A stretch of DNA of 34,826 nt from a virus (lineage: Duplodnaviria > Heunggongvirae > Uroviricota > Caudoviricetes). Shown here piece by piece: positions 25,887 through 34,826 of the stretch. The number at the start of each line of letters is the position of its first letter. Position 1 is the stretch's first letter. A program made the position numbers and the translations under genes. The DNA lies in the IMG/VR virus record IMGVR_UViG_2877251553_000002, one strand, 5' to 3'. The notes under the pieces are model-generated. The model made no database searches. It was given only the letters and a program-made list of their open reading frames with translations, and was not told where the DNA came from.

Positions 25887-26224
25887 CTGATAAAAGCGCC
25901 CTGTACTGGTTAGCAATAGCAAATTTACTACCAGCTGCTCTGATTTCAAGAAAGCTGTACACCTCCCTTATGCCTATATTTTTAACCGGAACACCACCAA
26001 AGTATTCACTTATGATTTTCAACCTCTGGTTGTGTCTTTTCATGGTGTTTGTGCTTAATTGTCTACGCTCTATTTCATTTCTGAAATTTAATATCAGCTC
26101 GCAGAATAATGTTACGCTATTACCTTTTATTCTATCCAGTAAGCTTATATGTTGCGTGGATAATAATTCCATATTTGCCGCAATAGCCTCATTAACTGCA
26201 ATTCTTTTGTCTCTTCCGATTCCA
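25887..26224 (-). pseudogene. lambda-family integrase, internal N-proximal fragment
   Basis: Reads ...GIGRDKRIAVNEAIAANMELL...NSVTL...AIANQYRALLS up to the IS911 junction, colinear with lambda Int residues ~36-160; 5' end replaced by an IS1 terminus at 26225. Confidence 0.8.
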
Positions 26225-26352
26225 GGTGATGACTCCAACTTACTGATAGTGTTTTATGTTCAGATAATGCCCGATGACCTTGTCATGCAGCTCCACCGAT
26301 TTTGAGAACGACAGTGACTTCCGTCCCAGCCTTGCCAGATGTTGTCTCAGAG
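26225..26352 (-). mobile_element. IS1 terminal fragment (~128 bp)
   Basis: GGTGATGACTCCAACTTACTGATAGTGTTTTATGTTCAGATAATGCCCGATGAC... matches the IS1 end at 4461-4590, then is cut by the ISEc8-like terminus at 26353. Confidence 0.8.
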
Positions 26353-26388
26353 TAAGCGTGCAGCAAGAACCGTATTGACGGGGATGTG

Positions 26389-27927
26389 TTATTCAGTCGG
26401 CAGTGCTACGCGCCAGGGGAGCAGTTCGCCGACCCGGTTTATCGGCCAGTCGGCTATGACGTCAAGTACATAGCGGAGGTAGCTTTCTGGCTCCACTCCG
26501 TTCAGTTTGCACGTCCCGATCAGGCTGTACAGCAGCGCTCCCCGCTCTCCTCCATGATCCGAACCGAAGAACAGGTAGTTTTTGCGGCCCAGACTGACCA
26601 TCCGCAACGCATTTTCAGCGATGTTATTGTCCGCCTCAGCCCAGCCATCATCTGCATAGTACGTCAGCGCCGGCCACTGGTTCAGGGCGTATGCGAACGC
26701 TTTCGCCAGTTCTGAGTGTCGCGACAGGGTTTTCATCTTTTCACGCAGCCAGCTTTCCAGGGATTTCAGCAGCGGTTTCGTTTTCAACTGACGTTCGGCA
26801 AGGCGCTGCTCCGCCGTCATTCCCCTTATCTCTGCCTCGATGGCGTACAGTTCGCCGATCCGTTTCAGCGCTTCCTCCGTCAGGGCTGACGGGGTGCGAA
26901 CGTGCACATCGTGGATTTTACGGCGGGCGTGAGCCCAACAGGCGGCTTCCGTTATCCGGCCATCCCGGTACAGCTCGTTGAACCCGGCGTATGCATCCGC
27001 CTGCAGTACACCACTGAACCCCGCAAGATGGGTCTGCGGATGGATGCCTTTTCTGTCCGGGCTGTAAGCGAACCACACCGCCGGCGCCAGCGTTGACCCG
27101 GCGTTACGGTCGTCACGAACGTAGGTCCATAACCGCCCGGTCTTCGTTTTCTTATTGCCTGGCAACAGCACCGGGACAGGCGTGTCATCAGCATGGAGCT
27201 TACCGTCAGTCAGCACATAGTCCTGAAGCGCTTCTTCCAGCGGTGACAGTAGCCGGCAGCATGCATCCACCCAGCCCGACAGCAGTGAACGACTCAGCTC
27301 CACGCCCTGGCGGCCGTACATTTCAGACTGGCGGTACAGCGGGGTGTGCTCTGCATACTTTGAGATCAGCACGCGGGCCAGCAGCCCCGGTCCTGCGATA
27401 CCCCGCTCGATGGGCCGTGAAGGCGCGGGGGCCTGCACGATGGCATCGCACTGAGTACAGGCATGCTTTTCACGTACAGTCCGGATAACCCGGAAGACGC
27501 TGCGCATCAACTCCAGCTGTTCGGCGGCATCCTCACCCGGATAGCTCAGTGAGCCTCCACATTCCGGGCAGCATGACGCTGCCGGCAGCAGCCGTTTTTC
27601 ATCGCGGGGGAGTGATTCGGGGAACGGTTTGCGGGTGCGGGTTTGACGCAGCGGGCGCTGCACGGCCGGGTCGTCAACCCGACCGGTAAGGGTATCACTT
27701 TCTTTCTGAAGTGCCTTCAGGTCAGCTTCCATCTGTGCGATACGACGGGAGACTTTTTCGGAGCGGCTGCCGAAGTTCATCCGGCGCAGCTTATCCAGCT
27801 GTGCCTGCAGATGGTCTATTTCGCGTTCACGCTCGTTCAGCTTTTCCAGCAGGGCACGGTTCAGCGCCTCCTGTTCGGCAAGGAGACGTTTCAGTGCATT
27901 GATATCGTCAGGAAGTGAGCTGCTCAT
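26389..27927 (-). CDS. IS66-family transposase TnpC, intact (512 aa)
   Basis: Single uninterrupted ORF; the only intact TnpC among the three copies. Confidence 0.85.
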
Positions 27928-27975
27928 ACCGGGTATATTACCAGGCTCATTCAGCGTCGACCAGGATAAAGAGGC

Positions 27976-28323
27976 TTACAACATAGTCAGGGACGTAAGC
28001 AGTCTTTTAGGCTGCCGCCAGTCGATACCTTCAAGGAGCATCGCCAGCTGTGCCGGTGTGAGGAACACTTTGCCATCCCGGGCTGACGGCCAGGCGAAGC
28101 GGCCGCGCTCCAGCCGTTTGGTCAGCAGACACAGTCCATCGCCGGTAGACCAGAGGAGCTTTACCTGACTGCCATTACGCCCACGGAAGATAAAAACGTG
28201 ACCTGACATCGGATCGTCTTTCAGCGTCGTCTGCACCTTTGCCGCCAGGCCGTTGAAGCCATTTCTCATATCGGTGATACCGGCAACCAGCCAAATTTTG
28301 GTCCCGGAAGGTAACGGGATCAT
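27976..28323 (-). CDS. IS66-family TnpB (orf2)
   Basis: 115-aa ORF identical to copy 1. Confidence 0.85.
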   Translation of the reverse strand: MIPLPSGTKIWLVAGITDMRNGFNGLAAKVQTTLKDDPMSGHVFIFRGRNGSQVKLLWSTGDGLCLLTKRLERGRFAWPSARDGKVFLTPAQLAMLLEGIDWRQPKRLLTSLTML

Positions 28324-28721
28324 CGCTTCAGTTCCTGTATCAGCAGAGTCAGGAGCTTTTCGCTGACATTGCCATTGAAGCGGAGCGTCCCGTGCCGGAA
28401 CGTTACCTCACAGCTGATACTGAGGGTTTCCGGATCCTCTGCGAGCGATTCTGGCTGTTCGGCAGCTGCATCGAGAGTCACAGGAAGTAGCTGGGGGCTA
28501 TCTGAAGAAGGTAATAGCAGCTTTCCCTCGCGCCATTGTTGTCGCCATTTGAACAACAGATTGGCGTTAATGCCATTTTCAAGAGCAAGTTTTGAGATGG
28601 ATATCCCGGGTTCACAGGAGGCAGCAACGAGCTGCTGTTTAAATTCGGGAGGATAATTAGGGCAGCCTTTTCGCCTGCCGGGATTCACATTTTTCTGCAT
28701 ATCTGACACTTTGGTTCCCAC
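28320..28721 (-). CDS. IS66-family TnpA (orf1)
   Basis: 133-aa ORF; alternative start at 28700. Confidence 0.8.
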   Translation of the reverse strand: MGTKVSDMQKNVNPGRRKGCPNYPPEFKQQLVAASCEPGISISKLALENGINANLLFKWRQQWREGKLLLPSSDSPQLLPVTLDAAAEQPESLAEDPETLSISCEVTFRHGTLRFNGNVSEKLLTLLIQELKR

Positions 28722-28818
28722 TACTTATTTGGTGGACACCACTTTGTCTAATTCGTCAGATTCTGACCAGACGGTTCAGGCTGTACGCTTACGTTTTTAT
28801 AATCCGGCCATGACATTT

Positions 28819-32798: not shown

Positions 32799-32888
32799 TG
32801 TTTATGCCGAACCTCCTCTGGTTCTGTTGATTGGGGAATCACAGATTATATCCGGAGGAAGGTTCGGCACCAGACGAGGTTTCTATAT

Positions 32889-32970
32889 ATGAGCATGAAA
32901 CTAATGGCAAAAGCAATGGAAATTAAAGTGGGTAATCCATTGCGTAAGCTGGTTCTGATTAAGCTGGCTG
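32889..32970 (+). pseudogene. 5' fragment of a gene cut by IS911 (possibly replication-initiator O-like)
   Basis: MSMKLMAKAMEIKVGNPLRKLVLIKLA runs directly into the IS911 left end at 32971. Confidence 0.3.
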
Positions 32971-33042
32971 TGAAGTGGCACACTGAATTTGGCCACCTGA
33001 ACAGAGGTGATATGCTCACCTCAGAACAACACAGGTGCTCCA

Positions 33043-33345
33043 ATGAAAAAAAGAAATTTTAGCGCAGAGTTTAAACGCGAATCCGCTCAACTGGTTGTTG
33101 ACCAGAAATACACGGTGGCAGATGCCGCCAAAGCTATGGATGTTGGCCTTTCCACAATGACAAGATGGGTCAAACAACTGCGTGATGAGCGTCAGGGCAA
33201 AACACCAAAAGCCTCTCCGATAACACCAGAACAAATCGAAATACGTAAGCTGAGGAAAAAGCTACAACGCATTGAAATGGAGAATGAAATATTAAAAAAG
33301 GCTACCGCGCTCTTGATGTCAGACTCCCTGAACAGTTCTCGATAA
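33043..33345 (+). CDS. IS911 OrfA
   Basis: [21 protein letters not shown]...; one substitution relative to copy B. Confidence 0.85.
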
Positions 33346-33371
33346 TCGGGAAACTCAGAGCGCATTATCCT

Positions 33372-34218
33372 GTGGTCACACTCTGCCAAGTGTTCGGGGT
33401 TCATCGCAGCAGCTACAGATACTGGAAAAACCGTCCTGAAAAACCAGACGGCAGACGGGCTGTATTACGCAGTCAGGTACTTGAGCTACATGGCATCAGC
33501 CATGGTTCGGCCGGAGCAAGAAGCATCGCCACAATGGCAACCCGGAGAGGCTACCAGATGGGACGCTGGCTTGCTGGCAGGCTCATGAAAGAGCTGGGGC
33601 TGGTCAGCTGTCAGCAGCCGACTCACCGGAATAAACGTGGTGGTCATGAACATGTTGCTATCCCTAACTACCTTGAAAGGCAGTTCGCCGTGACCGAGCC
33701 AAATCAGGTGTGGTGCGGTGATGTGACCTGTATCTGGACGGGTAAGCGCTGGGCGTACCTCGCCGTTGTTCTCGACCTGTTCGCAAGAAAACCAGTGGGC
33801 TGGGCCATGTCGTTCTCGCCGGACAGCAGGCTCACCATGAAAGCGCTGGAAATGGCATGGGAAACCCGTGGTAAGCCCGGTGGGGTGATGTTCCACAGCG
33901 ATCAGGGCAGTCATTATACGAGCAGGCAGTTCCGGCAGTTATTGTGGCGATACCAGATCAGACAGAGTATGAGCCGGCGCGGAAACTGCTGGGATAACAG
34001 CCCAATGGAACGCTTCTTCAGGAGTCTGAAGAACGAATGGATGCCGGTGGTGGGTTACGTAAGCTTCAGCGAGGCAGCTCACGCCATAACGGACTATATC
34101 GTTGGATATTACAGCGCACTAAGACCGCACGAATATAACGGTGGGTTACCCCAAACGAATCGGAAAATCGATACTGGAAAAACTCTAACTCGGTGGCCAG
34201 TTTTTGTTGACCACTTCA
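33372..34218 (+). CDS. IS911 OrfB variant lacking an in-IS stop (reads on into the integrase fragment)
   Basis: Same C4 tract variant (34149-34152) as copy B; the ORF track fuses it to the downstream integrase fragment as a 484-aa chimera. Confidence 0.75.
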
Positions 34219-34826
34219 CAGACATTTTTAAAACAGCTATAGCTTCTGGTCTTGCCGAAGAAGATCCAGCTTCTGCAACCAGGCCATTCAGAACTGAAGT
34301 GAAGCGCAGTCGACTGTTAATTGACGAGTATCTGTTAATCAGGAAAATAGCAGACGTCCAGAACGAATGGTTCGGCCTTTGCATGGATCTTGCACTGGTA
34401 ACAGGACAGCGCGAAGGAGATCTGGCGGCTATGAGATGGGAGGATATAAGAGATGGCAGGCTATACGTGGAACAACAAAAAACAGGGGCAAAAATTCGCA
34501 TTTCTCTCCCCACCACGATTTCCAGATTGAATTTAACACTTACCGATGTACTGGATAACTTGAAAAAAATAAACGGTAAAAACGAAAAGTTACTCGGAGG
34601 GAAGACAGCCAGGACAATCGCAGCACAGTTCAGGATTGCCCGAGACACATCCGGATTGAAATGGGAAGGTGACCCACCGCCATTTCATGAAATCCGAAGT
34701 TTATCCGGTCGCCTGCACTCAGCAGAAAAAGGCAGTGATTTCACTCAGGCGCTCCTTGGACATCGTTCATCCAGCATGACGGATAAATACCGTGACGGAC
34801 GAGGGAGGGAATGGAAAGACATTTAG
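34219..34826 (+). pseudogene. lambda-family tyrosine integrase, C-terminal catalytic half
   Basis: [17 protein letters not shown]...[35 protein letters not shown]...[10 protein letters not shown]...[24 protein letters not shown] colinear with lambda Int residues ~161-356; stop at the last base of the window. Confidence 0.85.

Follow-up and report, generated by a model that had tools for sequence, protein, structure and literature searches.

Exchange between inverted copies of an insertion sequence (IS) is the standard source of inversions, and such inversions are very frequent in Shigella; of 114 inversions reconstructed in one study, 103 fell on Shigella branches (PMC8072062). ISs that have lost their target duplications have usually done so by recombination between ISs or by deletions adjacent to them (PMC11708052). 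Here we describe a 34,826-nucleotide stretch of viral DNA (IMG/VR record IMGVR_UViG_2877251553_000002; "the window" refers to this whole stretch) containing a defective lambdoid prophage, located beside ybhA in relatives, in which two pieces of the integrase gene (int) abut two oppositely oriented copies of IS911. This arrangement is very likely the scar of serial IS events, in which an IS911 inserted into int, a partner IS911 became associated with a deletion, and the two copies underwent exchange.

The two integrase pieces tile one gene

Three IS911 sequences (copies A, B and C; Table 1) are present in the window, all inside 12 kb. The minus-strand frame that ends at 25887 (int-N) reads ...GSKFAIANQYRALLS and continues directly into the left inverted repeat (IRL) of copy B, and int-C lies on the plus strand next to the right inverted repeat (IRR) of copy C. 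Joining the reverse complement of 25887-26240 to 34222-34826, with one CAG dropped, produces a single open frame with its stop codon at 34824-34826, and the joined 959 nt give one ungapped match, 99.7% identical, to the uninterrupted int of Escherichia coli FDAARGOS_943 and FDAARGOS_944. Positions 25887-26224 correspond to 20338-20001 of the reference prophage (L001) and positions 34219-34826 to 20336-20943, each at 99.7% identity, such that the two pieces overlap by exactly 3 bp (CAG); they likewise overlap by 3 bp in comparison with two viral contigs from IMG/VR (L133 and L135). A preliminary description of the window had proposed that the two fragments form one integrase without overlap, and that the trinucleotides at the two junctions are a CAG target duplication. 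Our comparison bears out both proposals, since the pieces belong to a single lineage and their sole overlap is the 3-bp duplication itself.

At the protein level, the joined sequence aligned with residues 36-352 of lambda Int in one stretch (E = 6e-67), in which the joint is ungapped and pairs with rstlsDafreaia, as expected from the colinearity with lambda Int that had been described. Pfam assigned to it Phage_int_M (PF22022), which spans the joint region, and Phage_integrase (PF00589, E = 2e-16). The segments vtgqRegdl, fheiRsls, llgHrs and dkYrd align opposite the catalytic motifs of lambda Int. The IS911 insertion point falls between the equivalents of lambda Int Ser148 and Asp149, within the core-binding domain. 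Judged by sequence, int-N and int-C are two pieces of one lambda-type integrase, an agreement far beyond chance.

Copies B and C are 1248 bp each, mutually inverted, and differ at three positions (IS positions 105, 364 and 911). Both have imperfect terminal repeats with 5'-TG...CA-3' ends (IRL TGAAGTGGCACACTG..., IRR ...GTTGACCACTTCA). In copy C, HTH_Tnp_1 was detected at 33043-33345 (orfA) and rve plus rve_3 at 33372-34218 (orfB), and we assign the same content to copy B because the two are near-identical. A protein search with the orfB region of copy C returned public proteins named "IS3-like element IS911 family transposase" at 97-98% identity. By their identity, the domains of their open reading frames (ORFs), their terminal repeats and the 3-bp duplication in int, copies B and C are evidently members of IS911. 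They resemble this IS3-family element in that their ends read TGAAGTGG...CCACTTCA, orfA carries an HTH domain and orfB an rve domain, and the target duplication at int is 3 bp. They differ from it in sharing a C-run that is one base shorter near the IRR end, such that the orfB frame runs into flanking DNA; the shortening is common to copies B and C, is not found in copy A, and may be a sequencing error. Read in IS orientation, with slashes marking the junctions, the flanks are CAG/IRL...IRR/CAT for copy B and CTG/IRL...IRR/CAG for copy C.

The segment between copies B and C is reversed

The intact prophage of E. coli FDAARGOS_944 lies between pgl and ybhA. With int read as the plus strand, its order is late genes (-), lysis (-), four tRNAs (-), Q/nin region (-), ydaV (-), the gene at the O position (-), ydaT (-), cro (-), repressor (+), DUF1391 (+), Rha (+), recE, gam, xis (+), int (+) and ybhA. 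The tail-fibre genes, the holin remnant and tRNA cluster (23678-24639) and int-C (34219-34826) of the window run forward relative to the reference; within this part, 24194-24639 is 98.9% identical to L001 5868-6308. Reversed relative to the reference are 30011-31279 and 31351-32799 (Rha through ydaT), as well as int-N (25887-26224), and the ydaT region is 97.7% identical to L001 12071-13523 in reverse orientation. A 251-aa HTH-domain gene of E. coli CFSAN029787, located directly upstream of a replicative helicase gene, begins with a sequence 100% identical to the 27 remaining codons of the O-like gene (O-N). From these alignments, only the block between copies B and C (25887-32970, ~7.1 kb) reads as inverted relative to IS-free relatives. 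Flipping this block gives O-like (-), ydaT (-), cro (-), repressor (+), DUF1391 (+), Rha (+) and int (+), which is the order in FDAARGOS_944, with the outer regions collinear; the preliminary description had predicted that the flip would restore the canonical layout. The comparison with uninverted relatives that it called for gave the same picture, in that FDAARGOS_943, FDAARGOS_944, L133 and L135 all carry int uninterrupted and the segment in the opposite orientation.

Table 1. Positions of the integrase pieces, IS copies and neighbouring genes in the window
Feature	Position	Strand	Basis or remarks
IS911 copy A	22958..23677	+	5'-truncated, IS positions ~530 to IRR end; repeat families D2, I7; aligns with other IS911 copies
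Left flank: holin remnant and four phage tRNA genes (24195-24505, minus)	23678..24638		Reference orientation; tRNAs by ARAGORN
IS911 copy B	24639..25886	-	Inverted repeat I2; IRR end towards tRNA region, IRL end towards int-N; ends read directly
CTG, reverse-complement copy of the CAG target duplication	25887..25889		Reference positions 20336-20338
int-N, middle piece (core-binding domain)	25887..26224	-	Reference residues ~61-172, lambda Int ~36-148; Phage_int_M
IS1 end remnant	26225..26356		Repeat families D4, I9; 98% identical to IS1 copies 4461-5228 and 15833-16600
IS66-family element, one of three near-identical copies	26352..28789	-	Repeats I1, I4, D1, D3; DDE_Tnp_IS66, zf-IS66 and TnpB_IS66 domains
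Second IS66-family element fragment and IS3-family orfA fragment (29636-29944)	28790..30008	-	ORFs; HTH_Tnp_1; collinear with S. dysenteriae 225-75
Rha-family phage regulator	30068..30613	-	Phage_pRha domain; exact protein on record from S. dysenteriae 225-75
DUF1391 gene	31330..31482	-	Pfam; synteny with reference
CI-like repressor (HTH_3)	31683..32089	-	Two ORFs from 1-base homopolymer difference at 31888; intact 135 aa in 225-75
Cro-like gene	32194..32393	+	Homopolymer indel at 32324; intact 66-aa version in 225-75 matches P22_Cro
ydaT-like gene	32377..32798	+	Homopolymer indel at 32480; intact 140-aa version in 225-75 matches YdaT_toxin
O-like replication gene start (O-N), 27 codons, HTH-domain protein	32889..32970	+	Cut by IS911 copy C
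IS911 copy C	32971..34218	+	IRL end towards O-like gene start, IRR end towards int-C; junctions also in S. dysenteriae 225-75
CAG, second target-duplication copy	34219..34221		Read at junction; reference comparison
int-C, end of core-binding domain, whole catalytic domain (R-K-H-R-H-Y region) and stop codon	34219..34826	+	Phage_integrase

The partner IS911 lies at a deletion

If the exchange is undone, the IRR of the partner copy faces the tRNA region and its IRL faces codon 27 of the O-like gene. On the tRNA side, the reference reads CCATG/TCTGC and the window CCATG/IRR; the intact O-like target at the IRL junction is GGCTG/ATAATGCC. The CAG/CTG pair at the int junctions matches, whereas the flanks of the partner copy, CTG on the O-N side and CAT on the tRNA side, do not, a mismatch that we attribute to the multi-kb deletion at which this IS911 sits and which stretches from the O-like gene as far as the Q region. 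The window lacks all that would lie between the tRNA side and codon 27 of O, namely the remainder of O, the helicase/ydaV module, nin and Q. The deletion measures ~5.6 kb by one relative and ~10 kb by another, and its size can be given only roughly as 5.6-10 kb, since two different relatives were used and the gene at the O position in FDAARGOS_944 is a different allele. A deletion at the partner IS911 is required, either before or after the inversion. The preliminary description overlooked both the unmatched CTG and CAT flanks and the multi-kb deletion.

Relatives carry junctions expected before and after the proposed exchange

Contig AKNG01000014 of Shigella dysenteriae 225-75 is 99.85% identical to positions 28788-34826 of the window and has the same linkage of O-N, IS911 (complete in this contig) and int-C, followed by ybhA-modCBA. 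The O-N/IRL junction was found in 9 contigs and the IRR/int-C junction in 19, and ybhA-modCBA also lies downstream of int-C in the draft contigs that were read out of these 19; no IRR/int-C junction was found in a scan of species-representative genomes. The short-read drafts with either junction all end inside IS911 and so cannot show orientation.

A second relative, IMG/VR contig 2636415858_000002 (relative X, of which L132, L072 and L134 are overlapping parts), has both the tRNA-side/IRR and the int-N/IRL junctions of copy B, but on two separate IS911 copies. The IRR of the first copy faces the tRNA region and its IRL faces the ydaT side in reference orientation, with the junction at window position 32871. 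The IRL of the second faces int-N, and the contig ends after 375 bp of this IS911. On these junctions, relative X would represent the linkage expected before exchange, and 225-75 the exchanged linkage, as in the window.

A proposed history and its alternatives

We propose the following series of events. An IS911 inserted into int between the codons equivalent to Ser148 and Asp149, duplicating CAG, as can be read from the two int junctions. A second IS911, in the opposite orientation, occupies the tRNA/O boundary with its associated deletion; in our ordering it would have been acquired before the exchange, and the deletion could have formed either next to this IS911 or by recombination between two direct copies. 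Reciprocal exchange between the inverted copies would then have flipped the ~7.1-kb segment containing int-N, IS debris, Rha, DUF1391, the repressor, cro, ydaT and O-N. Such an exchange would leave int-N on the minus strand beside copy B and int-C still on the plus strand beside copy C, with the two copies of CAG now reverse complements of one another.

Several observations weigh against this history. At least one further event has to be invoked to account for the lack of a matching duplication at the partner IS911. We found no genome in which an uninverted int-N-IS911-int-C could be read end to end; the relevant contig of relative X stops 375 bp into that IS911, and its ydaT-side junction (32871) is 99 bp further in than the predicted 32970. 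A comparison of ten IS911 copies, in which copy B has two private changes and copy C has one change in common with 225-75, marks no crossover point and gives no mosaic pattern. Finally, the direction in which 7 kb are placed between two 1.25-kb inverted repeats is only as reliable as the assembly itself.

The same structure could, in principle, arise in one step through an intramolecular reaction, replicative or involving an IS dimer, in which the IS911 at the tRNA/O boundary used the CAG site of int as its target. A single event would then yield the inverted second copy, the flipped segment and the divided duplication, with no homologous recombination involved. Each copy would keep one old flank and gain one new flank and the duplication would be inverted, so by this reasoning the product would be identical to the arrangement seen. 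Rearrangements coupled to movement of IS3-family elements have been reported, in the form of IS150 insertion-plus-deletion events (PMC11708052), and the presence of three IS911 copies within 12 kb suggests local activity. However, IS911 is described, at least as PMC11708052 cites it (references 16 and 17 therein), as using a copy-out-paste-in pathway via a circular intermediate that yields simple insertions. Moreover, relative X has the int-N/IRL junction while its tRNA-side IS911 still joins the ydaT side, a state that a one-step event could reach only by later homologous re-inversion. One-step inversion thus fits less well than exchange with both the copy-out-paste-in pathway and the linkage in relative X, and we regard it as improbable. 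The preliminary description had proposed an insertion into int followed by inversion between IS911 copies, and had missed that a single step could end in the same product. Its proposal is supported by the tiling of int, the reversed segment and the linkage in X; homologous exchange as the cause is what we infer, the one-step product being the same.

Another alternative is that the true genome has int-N, IS911 and int-C in line and that the assembler misoriented the 7-kb segment. Short reads cannot orient DNA that lies between inverted repeats longer than themselves, and every short-read draft breaks at the positions of copies B and C. Nor is the window free of errors, as it has seven 1-base deletions relative to the near-identical 225-75 contig (at 29554, 31495, 31506, 31888, 32324, 32480 and 34148), all in G or C runs; there is also one 1-base insertion, at 29033, and the deletion in copy C has a counterpart in copy B at 24709. 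Probably sequencing errors, these homopolymer deletions make the reading frames of the repressor, cro, ydaT and IS911 orfB look shifted, and also give rise to the ORF in which orfB is fused to int-C. Errors confined to homopolymers are, on the other hand, typical of long-read data, which would be expected to span the repeats, and the independent 225-75 assembly joins O-N, a complete IS911, int-C and ybhA exactly as the window does. We therefore consider a misassembly highly improbable. A further alternative, in which no inversion took place and integrase remnants of separate origin lie by coincidence near two IS911 copies that inserted independently, is scarcely credible: the window is crowded with IS copies and a triplet match alone would occur by chance about once in 64 cases, but both pieces are 99.7% identical to one gene and abut with a 3-bp overlap, and three IS-free relatives have the entire enclosed immunity region in the opposite direction, which refutes this explanation.

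The junction-spanning ORFs at 33372-34826 and 25795-26172 had no record by exact look-up. A protein search with the orfB-int-C fusion was dominated by IS911 transposases, and its top three matches were artefacts of duplicated orfB rather than fusions.

A second break in int and loss of integrase function

The preliminary description also overlooked a second break in int, at 26224/26225, where the gene is cut by an IS1 end that is in turn truncated by an IS66-family element. The same IS1/int-N junction is present in relative X, there with a complete IS1. The intact reference protein has an arm-binding domain (PF09003) that the fragments in the window lack; given this absence and the IS1 cut, the window holds a remnant of the integrase family and not a functional member. 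Comparison with the reference prophage found no sequence of xis or recE left in the window. In a series separate from the IS911 events, IS1 and then the IS66-family element removed the arm-binding domain and xis. With its integrase in three pieces, one of them lost, the prophage cannot excise and is fixed in place, and turning the segment back would still leave int broken by IS911.

Independent disruptions of this integrase occur in other lineages. In genomes labelled Shigella flexneri (P0162, 372 member sequences), IS1 lies ten codons downstream of the IS911 site, with read-through confirmed. The viral contig L136 (9075-10768) has IS1 at the equivalent of window positions 26043-26051 with a 9-bp duplication, plus a truncation by the same repeated IS3-family element that occurs in relative X, and Shigella sonnei 53G (P0158) has a truncated xis-int fusion. 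It is conceivable, but in our view unlikely, that these knockouts in several lineages of Shigella and enteroinvasive E. coli reflect selection for locking the ybhA-site prophage, which carries an effector gene (ipaHb) in its E. coli reference version, in place, as opposed to neutral decay.

Other features of the window and its relatives

Copy A lacks its first ~530 bp, and its truncated side adjoins the start of a head-region ORF (22610-22948, minus strand); the reference genes between holin and head (lysozyme, Rz-like, terminase and portal) are missing beside it (22949-23677). Its IRR end adjoins the holin-gene remnant, where 23678-23893 corresponds to L001 4965-5180. At all three IRR flanks in the window (23678-23692; 24623-24638, minus strand; 34219-34233), GACATT occurs within 2-5 nt of the IS end (ATGGCGACATTA, CATGGACATTTG and CAGACATTTTTA), and these flanks belong to the native DNA of relatives without the IS. 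In a simulation on the reference prophage, the probability that three random sites share a 6-mer in 12-nt flanks was p = 5e-5. We rejected GACATT as a general target preference of IS911, as only two of 117 other IRR flanks carry it, one of them being the same site, and we rejected microhomology-mediated joining, as every junction consists of an exact IS end and native reference sequence. A 7-mer, CTGATAA, lies around the IS911 junction both in the intact O-like target (GGCTG/ATAATGCC; 32964-32977) and in the int target read on its reverse strand (CTG/ATAAAAGC; 25887-25893).

The three near-identical IS66-family copies lie at 1-2348, 17914-20349 and 26352-28789, and the transposase frame is broken in two of them; the copy at 17914-20349 interrupts the tail-gene block. 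The prophage of FDAARGOS_944 carries the type III secretion system effector gene ipaHb (L008 19529-21355) just past the tail-fibre/DUF4376 genes, beside a homologue of window 2345-2764, and the equivalent position in the window is cut by the IS66-family copy at 1-2348.

In relative X, the Rha segment lies between two inverted ~1.2-kb IS3-family copies and is flipped relative to its neighbours, with tail genes directly after it (L134 298-3178, equivalent to L072 4534-8340). Relative X thus holds further IS-bounded rearrangements of the same prophage. The IS3-family orfA fragment at 29636-29944 of the window recurs within this repeated 1.2-kb element. In AKNG01000014 (L002/L003), an IS66-family element beyond the Rha segment adjoins ybgS-aroG, and int-C runs into ybhA-mod-gal. 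Since the ybhA-mod-gal genes normally lead on to aroG-ybgS, this 27-kb contig looks circularly permuted, perhaps because it was wrongly joined across the IS66 repeat, or because the region was genuinely duplicated or rearranged.

Comparison with known systems

The rearrangement is a textbook IS-mediated event in a decaying prophage of a Shigella-type genome, ordinary for Shigella, and adds no new element or mechanism. For annotation, int-N and int-C are best treated as one pseudogene split by IS911 and an inversion, and the prophage is best scored as non-excisable. Comparison or validation of Shigella assemblies should allow for possible flip-flop of the 7 kb enclosed by the inverted IS911 pair, and the split target duplication offers a clean worked example for dating and ordering IS events.

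The joined fragments resemble lambda integrase (PDB 1Z1G, 5J0N) in aligning with residues 36-352 in one stretch with the catalytic motifs kept, and their DNA is 99.7% identical to an E. coli gene for one of the intact 373-375-aa integrases encoded by E. coli and Shigella prophages at ybhA. Unlike lambda Int and these intact ybhA-site integrases, the gene in the window is in three pieces: the one for arm binding is lost, the one for core binding lies inverted, and the one for catalysis is left at the prophage end. Prophages that have lost int and xis are reportedly immobilised, or "grounded". The prophage described here is similar in that its recombination module is destroyed, it is locked in place and it has undergone extensive decay by ISs; it differs in showing no sign that the locking was selected or that remnant genes are expressed.

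The closest parallel is with the IS-IS inversions of Shigella (PMC8072062). As in those, near-identical inverted IS copies bound the flipped segment, IS-free relatives have the opposite orientation, and a single insertion's duplication has been divided between the two copies, its halves being reverse complements. The inversions usually reported in Shigella are large and chromosomal, whereas this one spans ~7 kb and lies inside one prophage, and, in contrast to the catalogued cases, the partner IS here carries a deletion, so that only one of the two duplication pairs survives.

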